Of a stretch of DNA of 64,000 nucleotides, positions 32,196-63,785 are shown piece by piece (within the stretch, counting starts at the first letter, position 1; each line of letters starts with the position of its first letter). Position numbers and translations under genes: made by a program. The stretch comes from a virus: IMG/VR virus record IMGVR_UViG_3300045988_119396; one strand, written 5' to 3'. The notes beneath the pieces were generated by a model, which ran no database searches, was not told where the DNA came from, and worked only from the letters and a program-made list of their open reading frames with translations.

Positions 32196-32213
32196 AAGTC
32201 TAGAGAAGAACTG

Positions 32214-35344: not shown

Positions 35345-35395
35345 TATATATCCTAATTAGGATAGAAAAATAATTTTATATAGGAGGTATCTATC

Positions 35396-42102: not shown

Positions 42103-42349
42103 CAGTTACAAAAAGAAAAGAATTTTTACCAAAAAATACAAATGAAAATATTTTTTAAATTAAAAGGGTGTCAGCGTGTTACTTGGGTAAGTTGGCATAT
42201 AAAATAGCTCAGACAACGAAGTTATCATAACATAGATAGTAAAGTAAAAATAACTCGAATAGCGTTATTTTTATTATTGACAGTAGTTAAAAATGTGGTA
42301 GAATTACGTTATAAAGTTAAAAGTTAAAAGAATAAAGGGGTGATACAGT

Positions 42350-45135: not shown

Positions 45136-45195
45136 TTGACTTATAATTATTGTATGTTATAATATAATAGTTGAGTTAAGAGTTTAGAGAATAAA
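45136..45195 (+). promoter_or_regulatory. promoter (TTGACT-16-TATAAT) + conserved leader motif GTTAAGAGTTTAGAGAATAAA (copy 1)
   Basis: -35 at 45136-45141, -10 at 45158-45163. Motif at 45175-45195. Near-identical ~60-bp block at 52806-52865. Confidence 0.55.
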
Positions 45196-45878
45196 TGATT
45201 AACTTGCAAGAATTTGATAAAGGAGGTTTGTTTATCAATTTCGGAATTATGGCTTCCAGTGGTGGAAGTGGTAAAGATACAGTAGCAGATATGTTGTTGG
45301 CTTACCTAGCAAGCTATGATAGACATTCTAAAAAATACGCTTTAGCAGATGGTATTTATGATGTTTGTTATTCAATTCTAGGTAATGAAGATGACATTAA
45401 GCGTAGTCATCTACAAGGTGTAGGTGAGTCATTAAGACTTGTTTTTGGCAAAGATGTTTGGATTAACGATACAGACAAGAGAATTAAATCAGACCAACAA
45501 TTCCTTGATGATGTTATCGTAACAGACATTCGTAAGCTAAGAGAGTTCTCACATTACTTTGTAGATAAAGGTTTTGTTCCACTATATATCAAGGTTGATA
45601 AGGATATTGCCTTAGCACGTTTAAAAGAACGTGATGGTTATGTTCAAACAGAAAACTTTGGTAACAAAATCGAAAAGGAACTTAACTTTATTGAAAGTTT
45701 ACCTATTATCAAGACTAATATTCCAAATGTTAGCAAGGTAAATGTTCCAAACAATTCAGTGCTTAACAGCATTTATATCATTGACAATAACAGTGATGTA
45801 GATGAGTTGAGAGTTACAATCTCAATGTTGGTTGATAATTTAGCTCAGGAAGAAGGGTGGAATAAATTACAATGGTAG
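45195..45878 (+). CDS. dNMP kinase (T4 gp1-like P-loop kinase)
   Basis: MASSGGSGKDTVADMLLAYL parallels T4 gp1 GVKRSGKDTTADF. The start codon is uncertain (TTG 45235 or ATG 45249). Confidence 0.55.
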   Translation: MINLQEFDKGGLFINFGIMASSGGSGKDTVADMLLAYLASYDRHSKKYALADGIYDVCYSILGNEDDIKRSHLQGVGESLRLVFGKDVWINDTDKRIKSDQQFLDDVIVTDIRKLREFSHYFVDKGFVPLYIKVDKDIALARLKERDGYVQTENFGNKIEKELNFIESLPIIKTNIPNVSKVNVPNNSVLNSIYIIDNNSDVDELRVTISMLVDNLAQEEGWNKLQW

Positions 45879-46564
45879 AAGGTAAAAACTACACACATAT
45901 TCTCAATATCAAAGTTGGTATGAATATTGACGAAGCTATCAGTCCAGAAAATATTCATGGTGTAATGTATATGCTTGGTGTTAATAACCCAGATGATGTT
46001 GAGAAAGTATTTCTACAACGCAAGTATGATGAAATACAAACTACATTAGGTGCATTACATTTTGATGTGTTGCAAGGCGAAGTAGAACCTTTAAATCAAG
46101 GTCAAGCTGTTGATACTAAACCAGAAACAATACAAGAAATGAAACCAGTTGAACCAGAAGTGGAAAAATTACCAGAAGAAAATGGTGAAATTGCTGGTGC
46201 AACAGCCACACATATCGAACCTAATGAAAACATGGAAGATGACGGAATGTTCATGACAGAACCACCAGAAAATTTACATGATGACGACAAAATCGTACAG
46301 GATATGACAGATGAAGAACAAGAGTTAATCGGTGATTACTTTGGTTACTTACAAAACCACGAAGCAGATGATGTGTTAGCTTTTGTCGTCAATAAATCTT
46401 ACAAAGATAAGATTAACGAAGATGTTGTCAAAGCATTTGTCAGTGGCTTAACTGTAGTACCTTTTATGTACAAAGATTTAGGCGAACATGTATTAGCTGG
46501 CATTAAATACCTAAATAAAGAAACAAATAAGGTTGAAACAATTAAGTACGACACAACATTGTAA
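45872..46564 (+). CDS. hypothetical acidic protein
   Basis: 230 aa, Asp/Glu-rich centre. Confidence 0.45.
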   Translation: MVEGKNYTHILNIKVGMNIDEAISPENIHGVMYMLGVNNPDDVEKVFLQRKYDEIQTTLGALHFDVLQGEVEPLNQGQAVDTKPETIQEMKPVEPEVEKLPEENGEIAGATATHIEPNENMEDDGMFMTEPPENLHDDDKIVQDMTDEEQELIGDYFGYLQNHEADDVLAFVVNKSYKDKINEDVVKAFVSGLTVVPFMYKDLGEHVLAGIKYLNKETNKVETIKYDTTL

Positions 46565-46590
46565 AAAGTAATAAGGAGGGATAGCCTTAG

Positions 46591-47745
46591 TTGGCAGAAT
46601 TAGAAAAAGAATTGAAAAGTGGTCAAGCACGTTTTGAAGTGTTTGGCGAATTAAGAGTAAATGAAGACTCATGGGGTGAAGTTAGACAATCAACTTCATC
46701 AACATATAAATATCGTAGAGCTGCTTTGTCCGTAGACTTAGGAGAAGGACGCTCAACTTTCGTAGAATTGATGGGTGGGTATGACCCCAACCGTCCTATC
46801 TTACGTAGACTTTCTAAAACACAAGGCGAAGGCTTAATGGATATTCCCTGGGCTAACCGCCTTAACGAAAACATTGTAGCTAATGTTTCACCACAAAGTT
46901 TATTTTCAGTAGGTAAATTAGACGAAAATGGTAACATCGCTCGTAAAGTTTTTGTATCTGAATTAGACGCTATCGAAGAAATGGAAAAGACCTTTAAGAA
47001 TGGTGACTCAGTTCACATTTGGGGTGATGTTGAATATCATCGCTACAACGGTCAAATCCAAAGACGTCTAAGTATTCGTGGTATCTCTCAAATCGTACCA
47101 GATAGTTCATCAGCTGGTCGCCACGAAGCAACACTTAGACAATCATTCTTATTTTCTAAGAACTCAATTTCCCCAGATTATGAAGATGAATTAGAAGAAA
47201 AAGGTAAGACAACAATTACAGTACACGTACCACAATATGTTGGTAAAGAAGAAGGTGTAGAAGTACGTAAAGTCTTACCATTCCCACAAACATTAGTATA
47301 TAAAGCTAATAATGAAGATGAAATCAAACGTGCAAAATTTGTTATTGAAAAATTCATGACAGTTGAAGATGACGATTTAGTACGTGAAGTTATCTTAGTC
47401 GTTGATATGTATGACGGTGTTGAAACATCTACTGGCGACTTTGAATTAACAGATGATTTGAAAGACTTATTAGATTTAGGTGTGGTTACAGAAGATGAAT
47501 TGAAACGCACATCAACTGTAAGTGGCAAGCGTATTCGTGAAAATATTGTATTAAAACCATACGTATACAAAGACCCACGCACACAACAAATCACAGTAAT
47601 GTCTAAAGACCGTTACGATATTTCAGTCTTAGATACATCTGTTAAGGAAGAAGAACCAGAAGAGGCTTCAATCGCAGATATGTTTGGTGAAAGTGATGTT
47701 GACACACCAAGCGAAAGTGAATTAGATGAATTAGATTTATTCTAA
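46591..47745 (+). CDS. putative ssDNA-binding/annealing protein with SSB-like acidic C-terminal tip (..DELDLF)
   Basis: 384 aa. Adjacent to the Sak4-like ATPase. The C-terminus ESDVDTPSESELDELDLF mimics the SSB DDDIPF tail. Confidence 0.35.
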   Translation: MAELEKELKSGQARFEVFGELRVNEDSWGEVRQSTSSTYKYRRAALSVDLGEGRSTFVELMGGYDPNRPILRRLSKTQGEGLMDIPWANRLNENIVANVSPQSLFSVGKLDENGNIARKVFVSELDAIEEMEKTFKNGDSVHIWGDVEYHRYNGQIQRRLSIRGISQIVPDSSSAGRHEATLRQSFLFSKNSISPDYEDELEEKGKTTITVHVPQYVGKEEGVEVRKVLPFPQTLVYKANNEDEIKRAKFVIEKFMTVEDDDLVREVILVVDMYDGVETSTGDFELTDDLKDLLDLGVVTEDELKRTSTVSGKRIRENIVLKPYVYKDPRTQQITVMSKDRYDISVLDTSVKEEEPEEASIADMFGESDVDTPSESELDELDLF

Positions 47746-47768
47746 ATTAAATTGCGTAACACAAATAA

Positions 47769-48770
47769 ATAATAAGGTGGGATTTAGGAAAAATAGCATT
47801 AAAATTTAGAAAACCAGAAAAGAAGAAAAAAGGTGCAACATTCTTAGTTTACGGAGAAAGTGGTTCTGGCAAGACATTGTTTGCTTTAGGTTTCCCTAAG
47901 TCAGCATACATTGACGCAGAAAATGGTACTACTTTCTATGAAGGTACTGATAAAGCAGAACAAGTAGTAGGTTTCTTGGAAACACAATCATTCAAAGATA
48001 TTACACAACAAACAAAAGAGTTGGTTAAGTTAATGAAGAAAGGTGATAAGACCTTTGAAACATTAGTAATTGACTCTGAAACAAAAATCTACGAAAACTT
48101 ACAAGAAGCATTGTTAACAGTTGATGAAAAGCGTGCTAGAGAAAAAGGTCAAGACGTATTAGACGCAAATATTTCTATGCGTTCTTGGGGTAAGATTAAA
48201 CAAAAGGCACGTTCAATGCAAAACTTGAAGTTACAATTAGCTTCTACTGGTATGAACGTTGTTTCTATTGCACAACCTAAAGACACAATGGAAGATTTAG
48301 GTAATGGCAAGCGTATCAAGGTTGGTATTGAACCAGATATGAAGAAACAAGCTAAATTTGATTATGATGTAGTGTTACGTTTCTATACGGAAGATGGCAA
48401 GTATTATGCACAAGTTGAAAAAGACCGTACAGAAGCACATTTACGAGATGAAATCATTGAAAACCCTAGCTTTGAAGATTGGGCAGAAGTAATTGCAGAC
48501 CGTAAAGATTTAAAGGCGGTTGACGTTGATTACAATGTTGATACAGAAAAAGCTAAGGAAAGTTATGAAAAAGAATTAGATAACGAAGACTTGGATAGTT
48601 TACCAAAGACAGAACAAATCAAGGTTATGTTGGGTAAGTTATCACAAGATGATAAGAAAGAGTTCGCTGGACGAATTAAAACAGAAATTGGTATTACAGG
48701 CACATTAAGTAAAGCTAGTGACGACCAATTAACACAAGCATTAGAACTCCTAAAGACTGATTTTGCTTAA
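47769..48770 (+). CDS. Sak4-like RecA-fold ATPase (AAA_24); 5' end lacks a canonical start codon
   Basis: The Walker A LVYGESGSGKTLFALGFPKSAYIDAENG is encoded upstream of the first ATG/GTG/TTG. The open frame from the stop at 47766 has SD AAGGTGG (47773-47779) but only ATA/TTA-type codons before the P-loop. Confidence 0.5.
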   Translation: MIRWDLGKIALKFRKPEKKKKGATFLVYGESGSGKTLFALGFPKSAYIDAENGTTFYEGTDKAEQVVGFLETQSFKDITQQTKELVKLMKKGDKTFETLVIDSETKIYENLQEALLTVDEKRAREKGQDVLDANISMRSWGKIKQKARSMQNLKLQLASTGMNVVSIAQPKDTMEDLGNGKRIKVGIEPDMKKQAKFDYDVVLRFYTEDGKYYAQVEKDRTEAHLRDEIIENPSFEDWAEVIADRKDLKAVDVDYNVDTEKAKESYEKELDNEDLDSLPKTEQIKVMLGKLSQDDKKEFAGRIKTEIGITGTLSKASDDQLTQALELLKTDFA

Positions 48771-48828
48771 TAAAAAGGGACTCACTTCGATAGTGGGTTC
48801 TTTTCATATTAATAGATAAGGTGGTTTT

Positions 48829-49002
48829 ATGAAAGATTTCAAGAAGATATAAGAATAGCAAAGGCAAAACGGTTGCTGTAAGTGACGAACATCTCGCTGC
48901 TGCGATTAAAATCAAAGAAGAACTACAAAAAGCCAGTCCTGGTAGACGTACAAACTGGAAAGAACACAAAAAGTTGATGATAAAATCAGGATTTTATGAT
49001 AG
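48829..49002 (+). CDS. small ORF (57 aa) overlapping the start of the phosphoesterase gene
   Basis: ATG at 48829 with SD AAGGTGG 5 nt upstream. MKDFRRYKNSKGKTVAVSDEHLAAAIKIKEELQKASPGRRTNWKRTQKVDDKIRIL. Confidence 0.35.
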
Positions 49003-50080
49003 CGACTCAAACGAAAGTTATCGCTGTTTAATCAAAGCTGTACAAAAAGAACGTGGTAGTTTACCAAGTGTAGAGAAACACGCTGATATGTTGTCTAGCA
49101 ACAAGCTACAGGGCTTAAAAGAGAAAATAGGCGAACTACATTACGCTAAGTTTGCTGAGCAACAGGAACGTAGAGAACTAAACAAGGTTAAACGTGATAT
49201 GTCTAAGGGTGCTTTAGTGGCAGATAGTATCAGTAATTTAGTTGCTGATATGAATTTTGCTGAATTACCCAAGAGTAAGATTTACAAAAATCAAGTTAAA
49301 TCGCCTAGTTCATTAATCATCTGCTTATCTGATATTCATTATGGGGCTGATTTCTCAATTCCACAAAACGAATACAACCCAGAAATGTCTGCTAGATTAC
49401 TAGATGAATATGCTGGGAAATTAATTAGTTTCATCAAAATGCGTAAGGATATTATCCACGTACATGTAGTTAATTTAGGTGACTCCATTGAACATGCTCA
49501 AATGCGTCAACAAAATACATTTGAGGTACGTAAGACTGTATCAGAACAAGTCACAGAAATTGCTAGATTGATTTGGAAATTCTTAGCACGATTAAGTGAA
49601 GTAGCGTATGTAACCTATGAAGGTATTGCTGGTAATCATGACAGATTAAATGGTAACTACAAAAATGCTTTAACTGGTGATACAGCCTCCACATTGATTA
49701 ATCAAATCATTCGTAGCTTGGCAGAAGTTACTGATGGACGTGTAGAATATGTCGAGGCTAAAGATTACTACTTTACTGATATTGACTTAATGGGACATAG
49801 CTTTGCTTTTGTGCATGGGGACAAACATAGAGTAGATAGCAATAACAGTGTGTTATCTAAGTTAGGTGACATTCATAATAAGCATTATGACGCTGTAATT
49901 GCGGGACATATTCACCATTACAAGATGACAGAAGTTGGAGAAAATCGTTTCCAAGTTAACTTTGGCTCATTTAAAGGTATTGACCCTTATGCAGTGCAAC
50001 AAGGTTTTGCATCCAGTCGGTCACAAGGAATAATTGTAGTAAACAAAAAAGGCTACGAAATCAGACGTGTAACTCTTTAG
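48977..50080 (+). CDS. calcineurin-like metallophosphoesterase (Mre11/SbcD-like nuclease)
   Basis: Motifs LSDIHYGAD, NLGDSIEH, GNHD, GHIHH. Confidence 0.6.
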   Translation: MIKSGFYDSDSNESYRCLIKAVQKERGSLPSVEKHADMLSSNKLQGLKEKIGELHYAKFAEQQERRELNKVKRDMSKGALVADSISNLVADMNFAELPKSKIYKNQVKSPSSLIICLSDIHYGADFSIPQNEYNPEMSARLLDEYAGKLISFIKMRKDIIHVHVVNLGDSIEHAQMRQQNTFEVRKTVSEQVTEIARLIWKFLARLSEVAYVTYEGIAGNHDRLNGNYKNALTGDTASTLINQIIRSLAEVTDGRVEYVEAKDYYFTDIDLMGHSFAFVHGDKHRVDSNNSVLSKLGDIHNKHYDAVIAGHIHHYKMTEVGENRFQVNFGSFKGIDPYAVQQGFASSRSQGIIVVNKKGYEIRRVTL

Positions 50081-50091
50081 GTAGGTGGAAT

Positions 50092-50943
50092 ATGGCAAAG
50101 AGAGCTAAAACGTGTTTCTACTGTGGTGGAACTTTTGAAGATGAAATGGATATTGTGGAGTTTAGAGTTCCTTATACAAGTGGGAAATCAGCTCACAGAA
50201 GATTTCATGAGAAATGTTTGCCAGAATTTAAGAAGGTATTAGAGGAACAAGGCGGGGAAATCGAATCGGCTTCATATCGTAAGAAGTTGAACGAAAGAAG
50301 AACCGCACAGAAAAAGCCTAATTGTACGTATTGTGGAAGATTGTTCGTTGATACAGACGAGTCATTGGTGTTGTATAACCAGTTTGGTAATAGTTATGGC
50401 AAGTATCACCCTAATTGTTATATCAAGTACATTAACAATATGCAAAATGCAGACTTGAGAAAGCAAGAAAACAAGGAATGGGAAGAAGTGTACGACTACT
50501 TTGCTTATGAAATTCTAAATATGCGACCATCACAAGCAAGAGAGAATAAAGCTATTGTTTATAGGCTTGCAGCATTACGAATTGGTAAGAAAAGACTTAA
50601 CCGAGGTGACGTTATTATGGGTGTTGAGGCTGGTTATTCTTATAAGACTATCCTTTACACTATGAAATATGTTAGAACACAAATCACCGAAGAATTTGCA
50701 AGTCGTAGATTTCATGATATGAACCACAAGATTAACTATGCGATGGTTATCATCTGGAACAACATTGACTTTATTAACGGTAGAGTTAAAGCGATGGAAC
50801 GTCAAAAGGAATTGACTGAAATTGAAACCAAGAAACGCTTGGCAGAAAAAGAGAGATTGAGCAACGTTGAGAAACTACCATATCAACGCAAGTCTAAAAC
50901 AAGTGGTAAAGCTAGATGGGTTTGGCTTGAAGATGAGGAATAA
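50092..50943 (+). CDS. replication-associated protein with two CCHC zinc fingers
   Basis: CFYCGG..(27)..HEKC and CTYCGR..(27)..HPNC. Precedes the helicase gene. Confidence 0.4.
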   Translation: MAKRAKTCFYCGGTFEDEMDIVEFRVPYTSGKSAHRRFHEKCLPEFKKVLEEQGGEIESASYRKKLNERRTAQKKPNCTYCGRLFVDTDESLVLYNQFGNSYGKYHPNCYIKYINNMQNADLRKQENKEWEEVYDYFAYEILNMRPSQARENKAIVYRLAALRIGKKRLNRGDVIMGVEAGYSYKTILYTMKYVRTQITEEFASRRFHDMNHKINYAMVIIWNNIDFINGRVKAMERQKELTEIETKKRLAEKERLSNVEKLPYQRKSKTSGKARWVWLEDEE

Positions 50944-50960
50944 GGAGGCTATGTTTGTAG

Positions 50961-51275
50961 TTGGATAGAACTAGCGAATTAGAGTATGTAAAGCACGAGC
51001 TTGAACGTAACAAGATGTTGTTGCTATCAAGTTTTGGATTAGAAGGTATTGTTAAATCAGAAAACAAGGAACGTATTTTCATGAAGGTTATAGACAATAC
51101 ACATAAATATTTTAATATTTCTAATGGGGAAGTGTTAAACATGTTGTTTAATGCTTTGGAAATTATGTATCGAAGTGATAAAACACTTAAATCATTATAC
51201 GACCCAGAAACATTAAGTAAATTTGCAGCCGAAGAAAAGGCTTATATAACCAATAATTTAATGAAAGTGGGATAG
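50961..51275 (+). CDS. hypothetical protein (possible helicase loader/accessory)
   Basis: 104 aa, immediately upstream of the dnaB-like gene. Confidence 0.35.
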   Translation: MDRTSELEYVKHELERNKMLLLSSFGLEGIVKSENKERIFMKVIDNTHKYFNISNGEVLNMLFNALEIMYRSDKTLKSLYDPETLSKFAAEEKAYITNNLMKVG

Positions 51276-51279
51276 AAAC

Positions 51280-52761
51280 TTGCCAAAAAAAATAGAAGAG
51301 TTGTCAGATTTTGAAAAGAACTTAGTATACGACCAACAACGTGAAGAAGGTCTGTATGTATTATCCATATACAAGGACACAGAATTGTATTATGAATACA
51401 AACTAAAACCAACAATGTTCGCTAGTAAAGGTTGGAAAATGTTCTATGGAATTGCACAAGACTTAATAGATAACGGTGGTGTGCATAAATTAGACGCTGT
51501 TACGGTAGGTACTTATGTATCTGGACAAAGTGATAAATTACAAGAGCTATATAATGCCTTTGGTGGATTTCAAGAAATTGCTGATGGTATGGAATTGGTT
51601 GAAGAAAGCAATATCGAAACATACTACAACAATATTCAAAAATACCAAGTGTTGAGAATTTTGTACAAGAAAGGTTTTCCTATCGAAAGTCAATGGAAGA
51701 ACCTTAAAAGTATGCCTTTGGAAGAACTCAACGACTATTTTACTAATGTAATCAACAATGCTTTTATTGATACAGATAGTCAAAATGAAAAGGTTGGGGA
51801 TATTTTTAGAGGTATGGACGAAATGATAGAGTCCGCTAATCTCGGCAAGGAAGCTGGTTTGCCACTAAAGTCAAAGCTAATGGAAGATATACAACATGGC
51901 TTACGTTTAGGTAATATCACTATGCTGGCAGCTCATTCTGGTGTTGGTAAAAGTTTCTTAACAACATTAATTCATGTTCAATCATGTATTGAAAACAAAG
52001 AACCTGTATTAATTATTGCCAACGAAGAAGACAGAAGTAAATGGCAACAGGAATTGTTGGTTAGATTTATTAATACAAAACATAAGAATGCTTATTTCAA
52101 TAAGAACCGTTTCTTTGATGGTAATTTTTCAGACAAGGAAATGGAATACCTTAAAGAAGCAAGCGATTGGTATAAAGCTAATATCGAAGAAAATACTATA
52201 CGATTTGTAAGCATGGAAAGTTTTAGCATGGCTAAGACAATCAGATTAATTAAGAAGTACGCAACAATGTATGGTGTTAAATACTTTGTGTTAGATACAT
52301 TAAAGTTAGATAATGATACAGGCTCACATGTTAGTGATAAAAGTTGGTTGGTTATGCAACAAAACATGGTTAGATTGTATAACGTTATCAAGGAATCCAG
52401 TTTGAATGTTCATGTCTGGGTTACAGCTCAATTATCTAAAGGTGGACGCAATTCAAGATATTTAGACCAATCACAATTAGGGGTTTCTAAAAATATCATT
52501 GACGTTGCCTCATCTGTTATGTTAGTTCGTGATGTAACTCAAAGTGAAAAAGACCCAGAGGCTAAGGCTTCTGAAAGATTAACAGTGCATAATGCAGCTG
52601 GATATGAAGTTGAATTGCAACCAGAAGAAGATTATGTAATCATATTCTGGGACAAGAACCGTCAAGGAACAACTAATGAACAAGTTGTATTAAAGGTAAA
52701 TCGAGGGTTAAATACCTTTACAGATGTAGGGACTTGTCGTTTAGATAGAGCATTGGTATAA
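51280..52761 (+). CDS. DnaB-family replicative helicase
   Basis: Walker A LAAHSGVGKSFLTT. Walker B FVLDTLK. RecA-like C-terminal domain. TTG start. Confidence 0.65.
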   Translation: MPKKIEELSDFEKNLVYDQQREEGLYVLSIYKDTELYYEYKLKPTMFASKGWKMFYGIAQDLIDNGGVHKLDAVTVGTYVSGQSDKLQELYNAFGGFQEIADGMELVEESNIETYYNNIQKYQVLRILYKKGFPIESQWKNLKSMPLEELNDYFTNVINNAFIDTDSQNEKVGDIFRGMDEMIESANLGKEAGLPLKSKLMEDIQHGLRLGNITMLAAHSGVGKSFLTTLIHVQSCIENKEPVLIIANEEDRSKWQQELLVRFINTKHKNAYFNKNRFFDGNFSDKEMEYLKEASDWYKANIEENTIRFVSMESFSMAKTIRLIKKYATMYGVKYFVLDTLKLDNDTGSHVSDKSWLVMQQNMVRLYNVIKESSLNVHVWVTAQLSKGGRNSRYLDQSQLGVSKNIIDVASSVMLVRDVTQSEKDPEAKASERLTVHNAAGYEVELQPEEDYVIIFWDKNRQGTTNEQVVLKVNRGLNTFTDVGTCRLDRALV

Positions 52762-52768
52762 GAAAAGT

Positions 52769-52794
52769 AGCACTCAAAAACGAGTGCTTTTTTC
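52769..52794 (+). terminator. rho-independent terminator
   Basis: TAGCACTC-aaaaac-GAGTGCT followed by TTTTTTC. Confidence 0.6.
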
Positions 52795-52805
52795 ATTTTT
52801 AATCA

Positions 52806-52865
52806 TTGACTTAATATGTATATATGTTATAATATAATAGTTAAGTTAAGAGTTTAGAGAATAAA
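52806..52865 (+). promoter_or_regulatory. promoter (TTGACT-N17-TATAAT) + conserved leader motif (copy 2)
   Basis: Motif at 52845-52865. Near-identical to 45136-45195. Confidence 0.55.
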
Positions 52866-53062
52866 CAATTAGCTTACAAGCACACAATAAGGAAGGTGAT
52901 TTTCTGCTTAGTAACTCTTTCTACGAGCATTTAAAAAACGCAGAGTATAAGAATGGTTTAGATGTTGAATGGACATTAGATGATAATGACCCAGACCTAG
53001 TATGGTGCAGAGAATATCTAAGCAATCGTTATTTCTATCAAAGATATTTCGCATTTGCAAAT

Positions 53063-56002: not shown

Positions 56003-56385
56003 TGACAAAACCATATCGTTGGTATAAAGGTGAACCTGTTATCATGAAAAAAGTCTATTACATAGGCAATCAAATGTTTACTAGATTGGAACACTTCTAT
56101 ACTAAGGAGGTAATTCCAGCAGTTGATGTTCATGATGTTAAAGATACTTGTGAAGAAAGCCTAGAAATTGCTAGTGATTTACAGGAAGAACCGAAGCAAG
56201 AAGAACAAACACAAGTCAATAAGATTAAGTTTACTGATGTAAATGGTAATGAAAATGCGTTTGAAGAAAACAGCAAAGAATACCAAAAGTTTGTTGATGA
56301 TAACAAGCTAAAAGATGAGTTTATTGGACGTGTCTTAGATGGCAAAATCAATAAACATAAAGGTTTTAATATCGAACGTGTATAG
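56002..56385 (+). CDS. hypothetical acidic protein
   Basis: 127 aa, translationally coupled to the helicase gene. Confidence 0.4.
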   Translation: MTKPYRWYKGEPVIMKKVYYIGNQMFTRLEHFYTKEVIPAVDVHDVKDTCEESLEIASDLQEEPKQEEQTQVNKIKFTDVNGNENAFEENSKEYQKFVDDNKLKDEFIGRVLDGKINKHKGFNIERV

Positions 56386-56860
56386 CCTTAACATTCGGGA
56401 AGTGTGCAAGGTTGTGAGATGTTTGATGATTATGAAACGTCTGAATTATTAGATGTACTCAATTACATTTTACGTTCTGGGAGATGGAAAGAGTTAGAGT
56501 ATGTCTATTCAGAGTTAGTTTTAGAGCTACGGAAGCGTAGTGAGTTGTTGGGTATGATTTATTAAAAGGTATAAAAATAGGATAGCCTTATCAGAAATCA
56601 GCTATCCTAGAACATCGTGAGTGTACCGACCCTTTTTAATTCCGAACATTTGATTAAATTACAGATGGAAATAGAAAGGTGTTTTTGACATTTTTCGTTT
56701 CAGTTTCAGTATGTTAAATCAATTAGAAGTACACTCGGTTCATGCCTATTATACCTTACATTCATTACGTTTTCTATACAAAATTAAGAAGCGATGTTAA
56801 TCGTGGATAAGCAAGTCGTAAGACTGAAAGCTAAAGAGAAGAAAGAAGAGGTAATTCATT

Positions 56861-57625
56861 TTGGAAAACAATACAGTAGATAAGTTTGATAACACAGGTG
56901 CATGGTATAACGTGTTGAAACCAACATGGTATCTAGAACAAATGAAAGGCTGGTCTTTCCCTAGCTACATGTTATTGATGTTTGGCTTAGGTGCAATTAT
57001 TGGTATGACAGCTGCTAGTGGTATCAATGGTATCTCAATTTTAACTTTATTGGCTGGTACATTAGGCTTTACATGTACTATTTCTATTACAAATGCTAAA
57101 CCATTAAACGGTATTTTTGGTTTGGTTAGTGCTTTGATTTACATTACAGTAGCTATTCATGCCAAAAACTTTAATGATGTTCTATTGCAAACTGTTTATA
57201 TCTTGTTATTGGACTTACCAGTATTGCTTATGCCATCTTGGGCAAAGAACGTTGAAGAAAAGGTGCGTTTCTTACATGAAGGTGGTAAAGGTAAGCGTAA
57301 TTGGTTATTAACATTAGTATTCTTCGTAGTAGTTGCTTTAGTATTGTACTACTCAGATACACATTGGTTCATTAGCCCACGTCCAGTTGTAGATAGTGTG
57401 GCAGCAGCTATCGGTATTACAGGTGCTATGTTAACTACATTACGTTTTTCAGAAAGCTACTATTTTTGGATTGCACAAGGTCTTTCTTCTGTTATCTTAT
57501 GGGGAATTACCGCAGCAAGTGGAGCAGTTAACTGGGTATTATTCGTAACATACCTATTGTACTTATCTAATGACGCAGTTGCATTATTTGATGAGAAGAT
57601 TAGCTGGTTCCATCATAATAAATAG
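56861..57625 (+). CDS. PnuC-like nicotinamide riboside transporter (multi-TM membrane protein)
   Basis: 254 aa, ~7 TM helices. Trp-rich termini resembling PnuC (..ESYYFWIAQGLSSVILWGI..NWVLFVTYLLY). TTG start after SD GAGGT. Confidence 0.4.
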   Translation: MENNTVDKFDNTGAWYNVLKPTWYLEQMKGWSFPSYMLLMFGLGAIIGMTAASGINGISILTLLAGTLGFTCTISITNAKPLNGIFGLVSALIYITVAIHAKNFNDVLLQTVYILLLDLPVLLMPSWAKNVEEKVRFLHEGGKGKRNWLLTLVFFVVVALVLYYSDTHWFISPRPVVDSVAAAIGITGAMLTTLRFSESYYFWIAQGLSSVILWGITAASGAVNWVLFVTYLLYLSNDAVALFDEKISWFHHNK

Positions 57626-57755
57626 GGCTCCCTAATGCTAAAAGTTAGTTAAGTGGTTGTTACTAACGGTTATTAAAGTATGGTTGTTAGACTGGGTTTT
57701 CCAGTCTTTTAGAAGCGGTAGATATAAGCTACTGTTTCTAAAAGGAGGGAAAGTA

Positions 57756-57989
57756 ATGGAAGATTGGAATTGGAAACAAATTAGAAGGCAATCCATTATT
57801 GGTTTGATTATTGGTTTCATTGTCATCAATATTTATGCTGTGTTATATGTGATGTTTCATGGAACAAGTAAAATGGCAGATACTCTGTTGGACGTAAATA
57901 TGTTTATGATTATTGCACCTTGTAGTGTAGTATTCATGATGAGTTTTCTGGGGTTAATAGTGTCGATGGGAGTTGAAGATGATGAATGA
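57756..57989 (+). CDS. small membrane protein
   Basis: ATG at 57756 after AAAGGAGGG. 2 TM. Confidence 0.45.
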   Translation: MEDWNWKQIRRQSIIGLIIGFIVINIYAVLYVMFHGTSKMADTLLDVNMFMIIAPCSVVFMMSFLGLIVSMGVEDDE

Positions 57990-58008
57990 TAAAAAGGAAG
58001 TGATATAA

Positions 58009-58188
58009 ATGGAAGTTTTGAAACTATTCGTAGGAACTTGTGCCTTCACATTAGCTTTCCTTTTCTTGTACATATCGAGTAGAGCATTTATGGTAGGTAT
58101 GTTTATGCTTGGTTTCATGTCTGCATTGATTGGAATAGGCATGGGTCATCTATCATATTCAATGTTTATAGATTTGTTTGAAGATTAA
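58009..58188 (+). CDS. small membrane protein (59 aa), below ORF-track cutoff
   Basis: ATG at 58009 after AAGGAAGTGA. MEVLKLFVGTCAFTLAFLFLYISSRAFMVGMFMLGFMSALIGIGMGHLSYSMFIDLFED. Confidence 0.4.
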   Translation: MEVLKLFVGTCAFTLAFLFLYISSRAFMVGMFMLGFMSALIGIGMGHLSYSMFIDLFED

Positions 58189-58414
58189 AGGAGTGGTATT
58201 CATAGTAGGAAAGATAATTGATGGAATATTATTGGGGCTATTAACACTTGTATATTTAGCTCTATTAGCTTGTGTAATATATTTCTTTCCACATGTAATT
58301 CATGTATATTTTGGATTGGGTTGGTTAATACTATATTGGTTGTTCTTTGGAATACAAACTATATTAGGTTTAGTTGTAGTGCTGCTAATTATTATAGGTA
58401 GCTTAGGTGATTAG
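58178..58414 (+). CDS. small membrane protein (2 TM); start uncertain
   Basis: Hydrophobic 78-aa ORF. Confidence 0.35.
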   Translation: MKIKGVVFIVGKIIDGILLGLLTLVYLALLACVIYFFPHVIHVYFGLGWLILYWLFFGIQTILGLVVVLLIIIGSLGD

Positions 58415-58472
58415 TCCAATGCAACTATAATAAATTGAGATAAATAAATGTGTTAACAGAGGAGGTGTAGGT

Positions 58473-58886
58473 ATGACATTACATTTGGGAAAATTTGACG
58501 ATTTGACGTTAGATACCAAGTATGAGTACAAATATTGTATGCTTGTCTATATTAAAAGTAGCTTGTATGATACACACGTTGTTCAGTTCACATATTTCAA
58601 TAGTCTTTTTGAATTAGAAAAGGGATATAAAACACTTGTTGACGCATTAGAAGGTCGTAGTAAATGGGTTAATACCGAGGCTGGCGTTTTTCGTGTAGAA
58701 GATATTGAACATATTGCTCCAGTGGTTGCCTATAATGTCCCATCTGACGAATTTGACGAGGGGACATACAAAAGATGTTTGGACTTTGACATAAGCAAAG
58801 GTGACGTTTTTGACGGTCGATACAATCATATTAAACACGTTCCTATTGATTTGATACGTGCTAGTGAAAGATGGGTGCGTGAATAA
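58473..58886 (+). CDS. hypothetical protein
   Basis: 137 aa, SD GAGGAGGTG. Confidence 0.45.
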   Translation: MTLHLGKFDDLTLDTKYEYKYCMLVYIKSSLYDTHVVQFTYFNSLFELEKGYKTLVDALEGRSKWVNTEAGVFRVEDIEHIAPVVAYNVPSDEFDEGTYKRCLDFDISKGDVFDGRYNHIKHVPIDLIRASERWVRE

Positions 58887-58912
58887 AATGGATATTTTAT
58901 AAGGAGATTTTT

Positions 58913-59182
58913 ATGGAAATAATAGACAATCGCAACATAATTGTTGATGAAAATATCAAAACTGGTGACGTCTTAGAGGTCATTGACCCAGAAGACCATA
59001 GACATGAGTATTGGATTGTTGGTTGTCATGGTGATATTGACGAAGAAAAAGCTGGATACTCACTTATTAACTTGGAAACTGGTGTGGCATTATTAGCAAC
59101 AGACCTTGACTCAGCACTTAAATACTATTGCTTAGGCTGTGATATTAGAGTAGTAGATACGGAATTGCATATAGTTGAATAG
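58913..59182 (+). CDS. small paralog family member 1
   Basis: Shares the pattern GDV..VID.....EYWIV......YSLINLETG with the next three genes. Confidence 0.45.
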   Translation: MEIIDNRNIIVDENIKTGDVLEVIDPEDHRHEYWIVGCHGDIDEEKAGYSLINLETGVALLATDLDSALKYYCLGCDIRVVDTELHIVE

Positions 59183-59192
59183 GGGTGTGTTC

Positions 59193-59450
59193 ATGGAAAT
59201 TGTACAAGGATTAAAACGTAATTTAATAGTTGGTGACGTAATCAAAATTTATCGCACCAAATACGCAGATGAATATGTAGATTATATAATGGTAGCACAT
59301 CACGAAAACATAAAAACATACTATTTGGTTGACTTAGAGTCTGGGACTTTTATATATACAACTCGTGATTTTGAGAGTATTCGTGAGTTTTTAGATACAG
59401 ATGTTAACGATTGGGAAATTGTAGACGCTAAGTTAATTGTATCTAAGTAG
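59193..59450 (+). CDS. small paralog family member 2
   Basis: GDVIKIYRTKYADEYVDYIMVAHHENIKTYYLVDLESG. Confidence 0.45.
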   Translation: MEIVQGLKRNLIVGDVIKIYRTKYADEYVDYIMVAHHENIKTYYLVDLESGTFIYTTRDFESIREFLDTDVNDWEIVDAKLIVSK

Positions 59451-59460
59451 AGGTGTAAGT

Positions 59461-59718
59461 ATGTCATTACGTAGAAATGTGAATGTGATAAAAAGTCTTA
59501 GAAGTGGAGATATAATTGACCTCGGCTTGAATGGGCATAGCGAATACTACATAGTAGCGTACCAAGCGGTTGGTGGAAGGTATTGTTTAGTCAACCTACA
59601 AGATGGCTACACAAGTGTATATGGGGATAGCCTAGCGTATATTGAAGACTTCTTGCGTGGCTTAGGTTATGAAATTATAGAAGATACAGAAGTACGTGTT
59701 AGTGATTTTAGCTTTTAG
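59461..59718 (+). CDS. small paralog family member 3
   Basis: GDIIDLGLNGHSEYYIVAYQAVGGRYCLVNLQDG. Confidence 0.45.
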   Translation: MSLRRNVNVIKSLRSGDIIDLGLNGHSEYYIVAYQAVGGRYCLVNLQDGYTSVYGDSLAYIEDFLRGLGYEIIEDTEVRVSDFSF

Positions 59719-59730
59719 GAGGTGTACATA

Positions 59731-60009
59731 TTGGATATTAAAGAGATATTGGATAGAGAAGACTTGCGTTTGGGTGATGTAATCTACGATAAAACTCTTG
59801 ACAAACACTTCATGTTGGCGGTGAATTGGGCTGAATTTGACACTTTCGCATGTGTTATTGATTTGGAATATGGTGCAGTTATTAAAGACTATACGGTAGG
59901 TAATTCCATTGGGTTTTGGGAAGACTTCTTTGGTGATGATGATGTGGAACTTGTAGATGAGCTTACAGCTGTTAGAGAAACGGAGGAAGAAGACGATAAT
60001 GAAGATTGA
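59731..60009 (+). CDS. small paralog family member 4 (acidic tail)
   Basis: GDVIYDKTLDKHFMLAVNWAEFDTFACVIDLEYG. TTG start 9 nt after AGGAGG. Confidence 0.4.
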   Translation: MDIKEILDREDLRLGDVIYDKTLDKHFMLAVNWAEFDTFACVIDLEYGAVIKDYTVGNSIGFWEDFFGDDDVELVDELTAVRETEEEDDNED

Positions 60010-60157
60010 GCTAGAGAAAATCCTAACAACAATAGTCTTTTTGATAATTGTAGTTGGTTTAATTTTTTTACAGATAGATACAGTCATGAAATTTTCAGCT
60101 GCAATGTTGGTTTTAATTTATTGGGAACTTGAAGATATTTTGAGAAAACTTGATTAG
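59999..60157 (+). CDS. small membrane protein (52 aa)
   Basis: ATG at 59999 after GGAGGAAG. One TM. Confidence 0.35.
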   Translation: MKIELEKILTTIVFLIIVVGLIFLQIDTVMKFSAAMLVLIYWELEDILRKLD

Positions 60158-60169
60158 GAGGAATAGCTC

Positions 60170-60580
60170 ATGGATAGACCATTACAGAACATAAACGATA
60201 TAGATACATCTAAAATTGTTGAAGTCTATGATAATCTAGTGTGGTACAAATTATCATTAGATAATGGTTGGACATCTTATACGCTGCGTGCACATGATTG
60301 TATGCACGACAACGTGGAAATCTACAACAAGGATAATATCTATTCTGATGATGGATATACCCTCGGTGTTAATTTCTCTCATATTCCATCTGAACGCTAT
60401 GATGAACTACGTCCCATTGTTAAGTGGTATGGCTGTAAGATTGAAGATGATGGGGAAGTTGTATTGCATACTAATAAGATGAGATTTGGGAATCCGTTAT
60501 TAAATATGACGTTAGCCCTTAGTACAATCGAAAACTACTTCGAGTTTAGTGGCAAGAAGGGAGATTATCCATACGAATGA
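60170..60580 (+). CDS. hypothetical protein
   Basis: 136 aa, SD AGGAGG. Confidence 0.45.
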   Translation: MDRPLQNINDIDTSKIVEVYDNLVWYKLSLDNGWTSYTLRAHDCMHDNVEIYNKDNIYSDDGYTLGVNFSHIPSERYDELRPIVKWYGCKIEDDGEVVLHTNKMRFGNPLLNMTLALSTIENYFEFSGKKGDYPYE

Positions 60581-60951
60581 CAAGTGCTGAAAGAGAGTTT
60601 AATAAGTCAGTGCGTAATCTATCTACATACCTTGAGAGTGATGACATGATTTCTGCTGATAACGAACTAAAAGTTATGCGTAAAGTATATGACGAGATGA
60701 AAAAGATAGAAAGCCATAGCATTACATTATGGCTATTTGTTACAGCGGCTTTGGTTGTGTATATTGGTATGGGATGGGGTAAGTACGAAATACTAACCAT
60801 GCTAATGACAGGACTAGAGGCATTTTCATTTGCTCTAATGACTTATACTTCTAATATAGTAGATAATTTTATTGACAATATCGAATATTGGGAAGACAAG
60901 TATAATTTACATAAGGGGGTGAACAGACGAGTTGACAACAGTATCAACTAA
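60577..60951 (+). CDS. membrane protein (2 TM)
   Basis: LWLFVTAALVVYIGMGWGKYEILTMLMTGLEAFSFALMTYT. Confidence 0.4.
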   Translation: MTSAEREFNKSVRNLSTYLESDDMISADNELKVMRKVYDEMKKIESHSITLWLFVTAALVVYIGMGWGKYEILTMLMTGLEAFSFALMTYTSNIVDNFIDNIEYWEDKYNLHKGVNRRVDNSIN

Positions 60952-61180
60952 TAATGTAGTAACAGTATATACTAAGAATAATTGTCCGCAATGCAAGATA
61001 ACAAAACGTAAGTTGCATATTTTGGGTATTAACTATCATGAACACAATGTAGATGAAGACCCTAAAGCATTAGAATATCTAATAGAAAGAGGCTTGCGTA
61101 GTTTACCTGTTGTAGTTACAGAAGATGATACATGGACTGGGCTACGAATGGATAAGTTAAACAATCTTCAAAAAAGATGA
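60932..61180 (+). CDS. nrdH: NrdH-like glutaredoxin (CPQC active site)
   Basis: VTVYTKNNCPQCKITKRKL..INYHEHNVDEDP..LPVVVTEDDTWTG. Confidence 0.7.
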   Translation: MTTVSTNNVVTVYTKNNCPQCKITKRKLHILGINYHEHNVDEDPKALEYLIERGLRSLPVVVTEDDTWTGLRMDKLNNLQKR

Positions 61181-61199
61181 ATATTTCTTAGTTTTTCTG

Positions 61200-61258
61200 T
61201 TGACTTTTATTTTCTATGTGGTATCATAATATATGTAGTTAAGAGTTAAGAGAATAAA
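61200..61258 (+). promoter_or_regulatory. promoter (TTGACT...) + leader motif variant GTTAAGAGTTAAGAGAATAAA (copy 3)
   Basis: Motif at 61238-61258. Left flank of the tRNA-like/TnpB island. Confidence 0.5.
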
Positions 61259-61346
61259 CGAGCAACTCAAAGCTACAACAAAACAATTAAATAAATCTAT
61301 TATATGCGTTGAGCTTACAAAATGTGTCCTGTTAAGTAAGTCAACA

Positions 61347-61424
61347 ATCGGATAGCTTAATGGCAGAGCGTACGAGTATGATAACGATACTTGTAAGGTT
61401 TGATGTTCAATTCATCAATCCGAT
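61347..61424 (+). ncRNA. tRNA-like cloverleaf (78 nt) with non-canonical extended anticodon arm
   Basis: Acceptor ATCGGAT/ATCCGAT (7 bp). D-arm GCT-taatggcag-AGC. 9-bp stem TACGAGTAT/ATACTTGTA with loop GATAACG. T-arm TGATG-TTCAATT-CATCA. No encoded CCA. Confidence 0.35.
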
Positions 61425-61970
61425 ATTTGTCACAGTGATTATTTGACAATAATGTTTATTTTGTACTCATGATGAGTACCTCCTTTTATTTAAACTTATT
61501 TTTCTGAATTATGTAGTACGTATACCTAATCACTGTGGCACACCTCCAAGTTAGATTGGTAGGTGGGTAAGATAACGGTATTGCCCATCTACAAAAGAGT
61601 TGGCACTTCTCCTACATAAAATTAGAATTAATGTTTCATTCCAGTCAGCTCTTTTGTAGGTGAACAAAACTTAGTTTGCCTAAACAATTTTCGCAAGTCT
61701 GAAAGGATTTGTACTTTCCAAATTGATGGTGTTCTATGGTTAGTATTTCTCTAGTCTATTTTGTTAATTATTTTAATACTAATTTTAATATCATCTCTTT
61801 AACACTTTTTATTTTTATATTATTTTGTTTTTATCTGAATGTCAGCCCATTAGGGTTGATATATCAGCGAGTAGACGGTTGACTTTTTGATATATTTTTT
61901 ACGACCTCCGATTTTATGCTTGTTTTTTAAGCTACTCGTTGATATATCCATCTTAGTCGGAGGTGTAAGC

Positions 61971-62186
61971 GTGGATAAATTAAGCAATATAATTGATAAG
62001 TTTCTCTTAACAAGAACATGGTATGTAATACAATGGCTGTTTATCATAGTTATTGCATTTGACCTAATCTTTTACAGCTACGGTTTCTGGACTAAGTTAT
62101 TCTATTTAACTGGTTTGACAGCTGGGTTTAGCAATATTAAGGAATGGCACAAGAAGCGTACCTATTCTGTTAAGAGAAAACATTAA
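61971..62186 (+). CDS. small membrane protein (72 aa, 2 TM)
   Basis: GTG at 61971, 7 nt after GGAGGTG. Sits between a large hairpin (61855-61945) and tnpB. Confidence 0.35.
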   Translation: MDKLSNIIDKFLLTRTWYVIQWLFIIVIAFDLIFYSYGFWTKLFYLTGLTAGFSNIKEWHKKRTYSVKRKH

Positions 62187-62311
62187 TATACATACAACTC
62201 TAAAGCTATAACATATCTTAATTTTTTGCGTGATATGTATCGGCTTACTTTATAAAGTTAGTACAGTATAGAATATAAAATCATTACATCAATTTAGTGA
62301 AGTGAAGCGAG

Positions 62312-63481
62312 GTGAGTAAGATGTTAAAAGGTATTAAATTACGTATATACCCAAATAAGAGACAACGTGAACAGTTGGATATTATGTTTGGTAATAGTCG
62401 TTTTATTTGGAATAATATGTTAGCTACGATGAACGAGCGTTACAAGAATAACAAAGATTTACCTATGTTAACCGAGTATAAATTACATGTTCTACTAAAA
62501 CCTTTGAAAGTTGAATATCCATTCTTGAAAGAGAGTGATAGCACTGCTTTACAAGTAGATTGTCAAAATCTGTATCGAGCGTGGAAGAACTTCTTTAAAT
62601 CTGGTTTTGGTAAGCCTAGATTCAAGTCTAGGAAATTCTACAAGCAATCTTATACAGGTAAGTCGGCACCTAATGTTCATGTAGTAGCTAAAAGATATAT
62701 GAAACTACCTAAGCTAGGCTATATCAAAACTAGCAAAACATTTCAACTCACCGATTGCAAGATTAAACGTTATACGTTAAGTCATGGCACGACTGGTCGT
62801 TATTATTTATCTTTACAGGTAGAATGTGAAAATCAAGCATTGTTACCTAAGACAAATAAATCAGTTGGGTTAGATTTAGGTGTAGCAGATTTAGCTATTT
62901 CTTCTGATGGAATTAAATATGATACATTCCATGTGGGAGATTTAGAACATAAAGCTAACTTGTGGCAACGTAAGTTTTCTAAGCGTAGACATCAAGCTAA
63001 GGTTTGTATCGAAAGTGATAAATACTCAAAAGTATTAGTGCCTAGAGATTTTGATGATTTTAAAAATCTACAAAAGGCTCGAAAGCGCAAAGCGAGATTG
63101 CAAGCTAAGATAGCTAACAAACGTAAAGATTACTTGCATAAATTAACCACTACGTTAGTAAAGCAATACGATACTATCGTTATTGAAGATTTAAAGGCTA
63201 AGAATATGATGAAAAATCATAAACTAGCAAAAGCAATAGCTAACGGTTCATGGTATTTATTCCGTTCTATGTTGGAATATAAGTGTAATTGGTATGGGAA
63301 GCAACTAATAGTAGTTAGTCCTAAATACACTTCACAAGTCTGTTCTAACTGTGGTGTAAATACAGGCAAGAAATCGTTAGATGTTCGTGAGTGGACTTGT
63401 GATAATTGTGGTACACATCACGATAGAGATATTAACGCTGCTAGAAATATCTTGGCTAAAGGATTGAAAGAAGTAGCTTAA
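62312..63481 (+). CDS. tnpB: IS200/IS605-family TnpB (OrfB) RNA-guided nuclease; no TnpA
   Basis: Ruv[18 protein letters not shown]. Ruv[13 protein letters not shown]. Zinc finger CSNCG..CDNCG. Ruv[15 protein letters not shown]. Confidence 0.8.
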
Positions 63482-63700
63482 ATAAGCGCAAAAGGTACGG
63501 GACGTGCCTCGGTAATATATCTAGGTTCTGTAAGTTAGGCTTAGTCCTAAATACTACCTAGAGTTCCCAGAAACCACCGTTTTTAATAGGTGTGTAGTCC
63601 ATATAAGGCAGCTTGATGGTTGCTAAAGGGAACGGGTTGGTTTTTCACATCCTTTCAATGAATACAGATAATTAACCCCTAATACAACTTACAATACTGA
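63440..63700 (+). mobile_element. putative IS right-end / omega-RNA scaffold region downstream of tnpB
   Basis: Structured noncoding sequence overlapping and following the tnpB 3' end. Inferred from the known tnpB/omega-RNA arrangement. Confidence 0.35.
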
Positions 63701-63764
63701 CACAGTTTTTGTCCCGTTCTCTCTAGGAGCTATCAAAAGCTCTCCCAAAACAAGTCTACTACAT

Positions 63765-63785
63765 GTTAAGAGTTTAGAGAATAAA
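63765..63785 (+). repeat. leader motif GTTAAGAGTTTAGAGAATAAA (copy 4), right flank of TnpB island
   Basis: Exact match to copies 1 and 2. No obvious -35 immediately upstream. Confidence 0.5.

Follow-up and report, generated by a model that had tools for sequence, protein, structure and literature searches.

A short conserved sequence behind the early promoters of an SPbeta-like phage-plasmid as a candidate transcribed leader element

Why does one 21-nt sequence recur behind several promoters of a viral DNA, and again on the far side of a tnpB gene? The question is raised by a 64,000-nt stretch of the IMG/VR virus record IMGVR_UViG_3300045988_119396 (the whole stretch that was analysed, hereafter the window), where the sequence GTTAAGAGTTTAGAGAATAAA, hereafter the motif, had been annotated at four sites. 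We observed the motif at all four of them: it is exact at 45175-45195 (copy 1), 52845-52865 (copy 2) and 63765-63785 (copy 4), and carries a single mismatch (T11 to A) at 61238-61258 (copy 3). From the analyses described below, the motif may be a transcribed 5′ leader element common to the early operons of a phage-plasmid, a reading to which we assign a probability of about 0.42. We class it with a known kind of element, the phage promoter-leader regulatory cassettes, of which it is a clade-specific example.

Motif copies, their promoters and their conservation

All the motif copies of the window lie on the plus strand. With up to three mismatches allowed, six matches were found against 0.02 expected, and none of 100 shuffled sequences reached six; chance recurrence, which the initial annotation had left as an alternative, was thus not borne out. 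The two additional copies (34544-34564 and 42316-42336, three mismatches each) are both promoter-linked. Weaker, promoter-less copies are present at 35263-35283 (four mismatches) and 32191-32211 (five mismatches), with the common sequence AGTCTAGAGAAGAA. The reverse complement of the motif, searched for as a candidate antisense RNA, gave only matches with at least five mismatches. The main copies are as follows.

34504..34564, plus strand: promoter (TTGACA at 34504, TATAAT at 34527) with the motif variant GTTAAGAGTACAGAGAATAAC at 34544-34564
42277..42336, plus strand: promoter (TTGACA at 42277, TAGAAT at 42299) with the motif variant GTTAAAAGTTAAAAGAATAAA at 42316-42336
45136..45205, plus strand: promoter (TTGACT at 45136, TATAAT at 45158) with motif copy 1 and a predicted leader hairpin at 45173-45205
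52806..52876, plus strand: promoter (TTGACT at 52806, TATAAT at 52828) with motif copy 2 and a predicted leader hairpin at 52842-52876
61200..61276, plus strand: promoter P3 (TTGACT at 61200, TATCAT at 61222) with motif copy 3 and a weaker predicted hairpin at 61235-61276
63765..63785, plus strand: motif copy 4, promoter-less, in an RNA-gene region, with GTCTAC(T) (63753) and (A/G)GTAGAC (63787) on its two sides

The promoters have the form TTGACx, a spacer of 16-17 nt, and TATAAT, TAGAAT or TATCAT, several with a TG extension, and are of the sigma-A type. All five promoter-linked copies of the window begin 10-11 nt past the -10 hexamer. The strong TTGACT promoters had been recognised correctly before, but the distance of 12-15 nt given for the motif has to be replaced by these 10-11 nt from the -10 box. 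The absence of a -35 element for copy 4 was also confirmed, there being no promoter at the canonical distance from it. Copies 1 and 2 had been described as parts of a nearly identical block of ~60 bp, which is roughly right: a 93-nt block (45118-45210 versus 52788-52880) is ~84% identical and contains a 42-nt core with a single base difference. Otherwise the spacer sequences of the promoters differ among the copies, and at 34504, 42277 and 61200 neither spacers nor flanks are related.

The operon behind the 42277 promoter has its ribosome-binding site directly after the motif and includes a YopP-like recombinase-fold protein (42643-43671, 342 aa), homologous to YopP of SPbeta (2e-13); a PDB sequence search with this protein did not reach 8A0A. 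The 45136 promoter with copy 1 heads a replication operon ending at a DnaB-like helicase, the 52806 promoter with copy 2 heads a RecD2-helicase operon, and each of these two promoters is preceded by its own terminator. The first product of the P3 unit is a tRNA-like RNA.

The replication proteins of the window resemble their counterparts in SPbeta-like phages. Genes for a RepA_N initiator (23724-24755, minus strand) and ParA (25796-26731, plus strand) adjoin phage structural and lysis genes, and an antirepressor and a HigB toxin are encoded as well. By megablast against plasmids we found a 95%-identical sibling, pMP1046B, a circular 129,218-bp plasmid of Ligilactobacillus salivarius JCM1046 (NZ_CP007648.1), which was called a 'candidate chromid' in 2014 (PMC4165912) and on which a tail tape-measure protein and a holin are annotated. 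Since replication and ParA genes stand beside phage genes and the sibling carries the tape-measure protein and the holin, the window derives from a phage-plasmid; it is part of a ~127-kb, SPbeta-like phage-plasmid of L. salivarius, in the clade of pMP1046B. The contig of the window (L080) runs 9.5 kb beyond its end, and two further siblings are present in IMG/VR. No close match to the region was found among GenBank phages (megablast), and a RecD2 scan of genome contigs matched a single unrelated metagenome-assembled genome. The relatives compared below are L078/L125, which lacks tnpB, L002/L124 (UViG_2898099943) and pMP1046B; L001 is compared for its tnpB.

In pMP1046B we counted 12 motif copies, namely eight at promoters (six on the plus and two on the minus strand), three at promoter-less sites inside operons and one in the spacer of an array. 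All 12 are co-oriented with their operon, and the eight at promoters all start at a distance of 10-11 nt from the -10 box. The initial suggestion that the motif marks the 5′ leader of at least three operons therefore holds for five in the window and eight in pMP1046B, always in the direction of transcription.

The motif is invariant at 19-21 of its 21 positions in four genomes, compared with 70-92% for the flanks. Copy 3 is conserved at 21/21 positions against 79% for its flanks, and promoter-less copy 4 at 19/21 against 70%, with the complements GUCUAC and GUAGAC kept beside it. This comparison of aligned genomes shows the motif to be under purifying selection. Its distribution is narrow: the exact motif was absent from a species-representative genome collection and, within IMG/VR, occurred solely in the three sibling contigs, while a degenerate pattern retrieved just chance matches within unrelated coding regions. 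Rfam gave no gathering-level match in the window, and the motif with its flanks stayed uncovered even at relaxed thresholds.

Downstream of the control locus, the early regions of pMP1046B and of the window (in the comparison with L085) carry different genes, and their sole alignable parts are the promoter with the motif and the motif with the tRNA-like modules. The terminator-promoter-leader cassettes are thus islands of homology between unrelated gene cassettes and serve, as a side effect, as recombination boundaries; we read these mosaic boundaries as a consequence of common regulatory cassettes and not as their purpose. One short element would then define the early regulon of the large and poorly known phage-plasmids of L. 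salivarius and offer a handle on the co-regulation of their early genes.

Predicted leader hairpins and the competing explanations

With the transcription start placed ~7 nt after the -10 box, the motif would occupy about +5 to +25 of the transcript. Folding was done on 53-nt segments, with z-scores against 200 shuffles, and gave the following hairpins.

34536-34572 (motif at 34544): 12 bp, -12.4 kcal/mol, z -4.65, motif core in the loop
45173-45205 (copy 1): 7+5 bp, z -2.98
52842-52876 (copy 2): 8+5 bp, z -3.55
61235-61276 (copy 3): weaker, z -2.05
pMP1046B, copy at 67952: 11 bp, z -6.32
Copy 4: weaker, closed by GUCUAC/GUAGAC, -9.4 kcal/mol, z -1.3

A hairpin was thus predicted for five of the seven promoter-linked copies folded; in each of them one strand of the stem comes from the 5′ portion of the motif, or from the bases just upstream of it, and the other from a downstream complement peculiar to that copy, and only 0-5 of the 200 shuffles were equally stable. 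This pairing of the motif with complements that differ from copy to copy favours a transcribed leader element. The 3′ arms are non-homologous (TAACTTGATAGC; TTAACTT/TTAGCTTA; AACTCTTAAC), and the GTTAA and TTAAC blocks that pair are 17, 24 or 28 nt apart, a variation that argues against a DNA palindrome of fixed spacing bound by a dimer. The stem substitutions between orthologues preserve pairing, mainly via G-U, with one change from A-U to G-C; preservation through G-U works only on the sense RNA. In the orthologue stems 93.8% and 100% of the paired cells were retained as pairs, compared with 17-58% for slid controls, and the orthologue of the 34544 hairpin keeps 12/12 pairs.

In most strong copies a purine-rich core, A-R-A-G-A-A-U-A-A-A, lies in or beside the hairpin loop, a few nucleotides from the predicted 5′ end of the RNA, and this conserved loop suggests recognition by a factor. 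Copies 1, 2 and 4, which are those with TTT, could also form a small apical hairpin, GUUUA-GAGAA-UAAAU, with the purine pentaloop GAGAA; its stem is disrupted in copy 3 and at 34544. The hairpins stand downstream of the promoter and have no U tract.

The 5′-proximal hairpins of RNA are known to shield it from 5′-end-dependent decay in Firmicutes. In the leader model, the hairpin would act in cis as an RNA signal recognised by a single factor of the phage or the host, and would place all the early operons under common control, be it by protection from such decay, by the loading of an antitermination factor or by a timed shut-off. The promoter-less copies, i.e. copy 4 and those ahead of the tRNA-like modules, would repeat the signal within long transcripts. 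A regulator-binding or a processing role, both proposed for the motif initially, is plausible on this arrangement.

Several observations weigh against the leader model. The transcription start is itself deduced from the -10 box. No hairpin was predicted at 42316, at pMP1046B 56419 or at the degenerate copies 32191 and 35263. A shuffle control of the pair counts was insignificant (201/500), the structures tested were derived from those very sequences, and the sample is small. The stems are short and AU-rich, and the register of the hairpin varies by copy, so that there is no single consensus structure. A partner protein for the motif RNA was not found among 30 early proteins searched with Pfam and PHROGs, in which the regulators were limited to an XRE repressor, the antirepressor and the YopP-like protein. 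Finally, a position overlapping +1 to +25 is equally classical for a repressor operator, and the precedent in SPbeta, SPBRE with its protein MrpR, is a DNA site.

Sites of processive antitermination that are borne by leaders, such as boxA/boxB of lambda nut and boxA of the rrn leader and spacer, are a possible comparison for the leader model. They may resemble the motif as oriented RNA signals that follow early promoters closely and recur within long units, and the predicted apical GAGAA pentaloop hairpin of copies 1, 2 and 4 may be a further likeness. In contrast to a lambda-type nut system, each motif operon has its own promoter; no boxA-like sequence was seen by eye, and no N-like or Q-like protein was recognised among the early proteins. 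The promoter-early stem-loop (PeSL) cassettes of T4-type phages (PMC2839356, PMC4122927) offer another parallel. In them a strong host-type early promoter is joined to a stem-loop; the unit recurs many times in the variable early region, and gene modules are exchanged at these islands of homology. The PeSL stem-loop is reported to act as a terminator, whereas the motif hairpin has a leader position, no U tract and a conserved loop sequence, and the host and the type of phage differ.

The most serious competitor takes the motif as a DNA operator, and we regard it as somewhat unlikely. A repressor of the phage-plasmid, bound at +5 to +25, would block the host RNA polymerase at all early promoters during lysogeny in the plasmid state, as a functional counterpart of SPBRE/MrpR (YopR), and the promoter-less copies would be auxiliary operators acting by looping or as a roadblock, like lac O2. 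The parallel with SPbeta is close. SPBRE is a short element found at many early promoters of a large temperate element of the SPbeta type, co-oriented with the genes; it is repeated in ~10 early promoter regions and bound by MrpR according to chromatin affinity precipitation sequencing (ChAP-seq) and electrophoretic mobility shift assays (EMSA) (PMC10516654). Several of its copies, including those of yopM and yopV in SPBc2, stand between the -10 box and the ribosome-binding site, and one precedes an operon with a YopP-type recombinase-fold protein. The 42277 operon, with its YopP homologue, is partly syntenic with SPBRE-yopMNOPQR. A second class of promoters in the window (30884-31296) has a palindromic operator, TTGTCGATAAnGTCGACAA, which is placed as the motif is with respect to the -10 box, and adjoins an XRE-type repressor gene. 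The motif can moreover be read as the contiguous heptads GTTAAGA, GTTTAGA and GAATAAA. Heptad operators are the mode of the omega repressor of pSM19035.

Other observations speak against the operator. The SPBRE sequence AAATACAAAAAATATGTATA is unrelated to the motif, which does not fit the 15-bp consensus of SPBRE, and the SPBc2 copies of SPBRE at aimR, yopM and yopV showed no similarity to the motif. SPBRE has a partial dyad and varies in its position relative to the promoter, whereas the motif lacks dyad symmetry and consists of direct heptads at a fixed spacing, with copy-specific complements of an RNA type. A homologue of MrpR (YopR) was not found by tblastn and BLASTP against the window, L080 and the entire pMP1046B (all E > 0.4), YopP alone having a homologue. 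Complements at variable spacing and substitutions that preserve G-U pairs are also left unexplained at the DNA level.

It is improbable, in our judgement, that the motif is a mere evolutionary footprint, kept while terminator-promoter-leader cassettes spread by duplication and recombination and having no sequence-specific function other than to belong to a good promoter context. The shared 93-nt cassette of copies 1 and 2, the restriction of homology between different gene sets to the cassettes, and the description of PeSLs as mobile regulatory cassettes (PMC2839356) are in favour of this view. Against it, the promoters at 34504, 42277 and 61200 keep the motif and its spacing within unrelated spacers and flanks, copy 4, which has no promoter, is better conserved than its flanks in four genomes, and the motif is still there in places where the rest of the cassette has changed. 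A very improbable alternative is that the motif is itself a promoter, used by an RNA polymerase (e.g. of the YonO type) or a sigma factor that the phage encodes. Promoters of phage polymerases classically look like long, conserved, oriented sequences before genes, and some motif copies have no sigma-A promoter. Against this, YonO in SPbeta initiates at a single site and reads one late operon (PMC5467207). The motif occurs only in early and replication operons, at a constant 10-11 nt from strong host-type promoters, and at 42316 the ribosome-binding site follows too closely for a start downstream of the motif.

The stretch 30884-31340 has four tandem rightward promoters, each with the palindrome TTGTCGATAA(A/G)GTCGACAA 5-6 nt after the -10 box, and opposite to them lies the XRE-type repressor gene (30372-30731, minus strand); together they are probably a lysis/lysogeny switch. 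Directly downstream of these promoters, a GC-rich stretch of ~420 nt (31380-31800) has many apparent helices and no open reading frame (ORF). It had no Rfam match at a relaxed threshold and is possibly a non-coding RNA of a new kind.

The segment between copies 3 and 4

Copies 3 and 4 flank a tRNA-like element, a small ORF and tnpB, as the initial annotation had it, and the coordinates given for them are correct. The segment contains the following features.

61347..61489, plus strand: tRNA-like RNA (61347-61425, with a 15-nt anticodon loop) and a terminator-like hairpin (61463-61479) with a T tract
61962..62186, plus strand: small ORF ('small membrane gene'), ~74 aa, GTG start after GGAGGTG
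62195..63602, plus strand: TnpB-only insertion of 1408 bp, with tnpB at 62321-63481 (386 aa)
63606..63750, plus strand: long imperfect hairpin located between the small ORF and copy 4 (arms of ~30 bp; middle part of 75 nt, variable)

The further proposal, that the 2.5-kb segment was inserted into a promoter-leader unit or mobilised by recombination between motif copies, did not survive the comparison of relatives with and without the insert, and we consider it scarcely tenable despite the correct coordinates. In L078/L125, which has no tnpB, both motif copies are kept 1.13 kb apart; window position 62194 is joined directly to 63603, and the tRNA-like element, the small ORF and the long hairpin are all retained. 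This empty site, together with a 3′ conservation that ends at 63602, defines the insertion as 62195-63602. The same tnpB occupies another site in L002/L124 (91% identical, between window positions 61704 and 61863, still between the two motif copies), and in L001 it lies in unrelated DNA free of the motif. A motif-bearing sequence does adjoin a different TnpB locus in the sibling plasmid, but it proves to be an array spacer (see below). No relative was found without the native 1.1-kb segment between copies 3 and 4.

Judged by its ends and its distribution, tnpB is an independent mobile element of 1.4 kb, unrelated to the motif, and with this ordinary insertion the tempting link between the two is removed. 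The protein has the domains PF12323, PF01385 and PF07282, and scores 358 bits with NF040570 (cut-off 100) and 372 bits with NF038281, below the 425-bit cut-off of the latter. The RuvC residues D185, E289 and D370 were placed at the expected positions by eye from the motifs DLGV, IEDL and RDINAA. The omegaRNA scaffold ends at 63602, and the 3′ conservation among the loci of the window, L001, L002 and L003 stops at ...GTAGTCCAT (...GGTGTGTAGTCCAT). The guide is presumably 63603 to ~63618 (ATAAGGCAGCTTGATG). With its TnpB domains, the D/E/D residues of RuvC, a conserved 3′ omegaRNA that stops where the element does on its right side, and a relative in which the site is unoccupied, the element is like the IS200/IS605 TnpB elements; it differs from them in having no tnpA (no such ORF was found in 62195-63602) and a very short left end, and its presumed guide starts with ATAAGGCAGC, not with the motif. 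The left end common to L001 and L002 measures just ~15-60 nt. In L124 (18029-19322), tnpB replaces 158 bp of native sequence (window 61705-61862), with a left end ~15-25 nt upstream of the ATG; an end this short suggests that the copy is truncated or was moved by a route other than standard transposition.

Two ways of joining the motif to an omegaRNA were rejected. Copy 4 is not the guide: it lies 162 nt beyond 63602, the position at which conservation of the omegaRNA with three other TnpB loci stops and to which the junction of the empty site also maps. Neither is 63603-63764 an orphan omegaRNA guided by copy 4: nhmmer found no similarity between this stretch and ~76 TnpB loci, and it folds as one hairpin.

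The other features of the segment are native. The small ORF is present in all relatives including the tnpB-free one, is phage-plasmid DNA outside the insertion and gave no Pfam match. The long hairpin is also kept in tnpB-free relatives, and its sequence is limited to this clade by nhmmer; in an RNAalifold alignment of four genomes the arms are invariant, and hence show no covariation. The tRNA-like RNA at 61347-61425 scored 35.5 bits with the Rfam tRNA model, and ARAGORN reported nothing at this position.

RNA genes around the motif and a second TnpB with an array

Downstream of copy 4, and again in the early region, motif copies are followed by structured or tRNA-like RNAs.

32191..32299, plus strand: degenerate promoter-less copy ATTAAAAGTCTAGAGAAGAAC and mini tRNA-like module, overlapping the stop codon of ORF 31953-32195
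35263..35370, plus strand: degenerate promoter-less copy ATTTAGAGTCTAGAGAAGAAA, second mini tRNA-like module and hairpin, after ORF 34588-35250
63786-63969 and 63970-64042, plus strand: structured leader, then a tRNA with the anticodon UUA (truncated where the window stops)

The stem GGUAUGUAAGG/CCUUGCAUACC of the structured leader becomes GGUAUGUAAAA/UUUUACAUACC in relatives, i.e. it shows compensatory changes between genomes. Past the window end, the contig continues with a tRNA-like element without an anticodon arm, a ROOL RNA and a tRNA-Ser. With RNA genes on both sides, copy 4 lies inside an RNA-gene cluster. The ROOL RNA (L080 12136-12723, equal to window coordinates 64456-65043) matches RF03087 with 245.5 bits (E 9e-56) and has tRNA-like elements on its flanks. 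The tRNA with the UUA anticodon (L080 11650-11722) is shared by the window and UViG_2901982107 and would read the UAA stop codon, as an ochre suppressor does; its orthologue in pMP1046B and UViG_2898099943 is a tRNA-Gln (UUG). The ORFs of the window appear intact under the standard code.

The two degenerate copies and their better-preserved counterparts in pMP1046B (that of the 35263 copy reads GTTAAGAGTCTGGAGAAGAAA) stand at the ends of ORFs, directly ahead of a mini tRNA-like element and a hairpin. These modules (32213-32299 and 35285-35370 in the window; 5760-5835 and 6098-6190 in L085) comprise an acceptor stem, one arm and a T-arm, then the hairpin and then a ribosome-binding site; the Rfam match to SpF41-like was weak (E 0.17). 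They are possibly processing points for RNase P and RNase Z in a polycistronic early RNA.

In all three siblings, the place taken by the ROOL RNA in the contig of the window is occupied by a second TnpB of 418 aa (NCBIfam TnpB family; identity to the first, 32%), at these loci.

pMP1046B: L123 20100-21760 (~44483-46130 of the plasmid record), TnpB-array locus
L002 6443-8090 and L129 1-190: TnpB-array locus
L125 20237-21620 and L132 1700-2130: TnpB-array locus

About 180 nt after this TnpB gene there is a CRISPR-like array, with repeats of 29-30 nt (GTGTTACCCATATGTRCGTGGGGACAGACT), spacers of 32-33 nt and a degenerate terminal repeat. The siblings have 3, 5 and 3-4 spacers, all of them different. 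TnpB-like nucleases with arrays ('TranC') are known in the literature.

The last spacer of pMP1046B, ATATGTAGTTAAGAGTTTAGCGAACAAACGAAA, is the extra promoter-less motif copy of the census. Its match lies at the promoter-leader junction of P3, in the window as in the two other siblings, and begins directly after the -10 hexamer (sibling P3 sequence ATAAT-ATATGTAGTTAAGAGTTAAG); the first 17 nt are exact, and 28/33 positions agree in the window and 29/33 in L124/L125 (counted by hand). In the P3 of pMP1046B itself, one inserted base (ATATGTAAGTTAAG) interrupts the match at position 8, which would fall in a would-be seed. Searches with the other array spacers in phages, plasmids, local loci and IMG/VR, the last with two spacers, yielded no targets.

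These matches invite a bolder reading, in which the motif would be the core of an undescribed leader RNA hairpin by which a single factor of the phage-plasmid controls all the early operons and, being conserved and indispensable, would be the target of an RNA-guided conflict between sibling phage-plasmids. We hold this combination to be rather improbable. A TnpB with a variable repeat-spacer array on a phage-plasmid, with one spacer aimed at this regulatory cassette, is nevertheless the more unusual lead, and it lies in the siblings. Two further TnpB genes are present on pMP1046B (NZ_CP007648.1 20705-22646 and 61580-62734), one of them accompanied by an IS607 transposase, which brings the TnpB genes of this 129-kb phage-plasmid to four.

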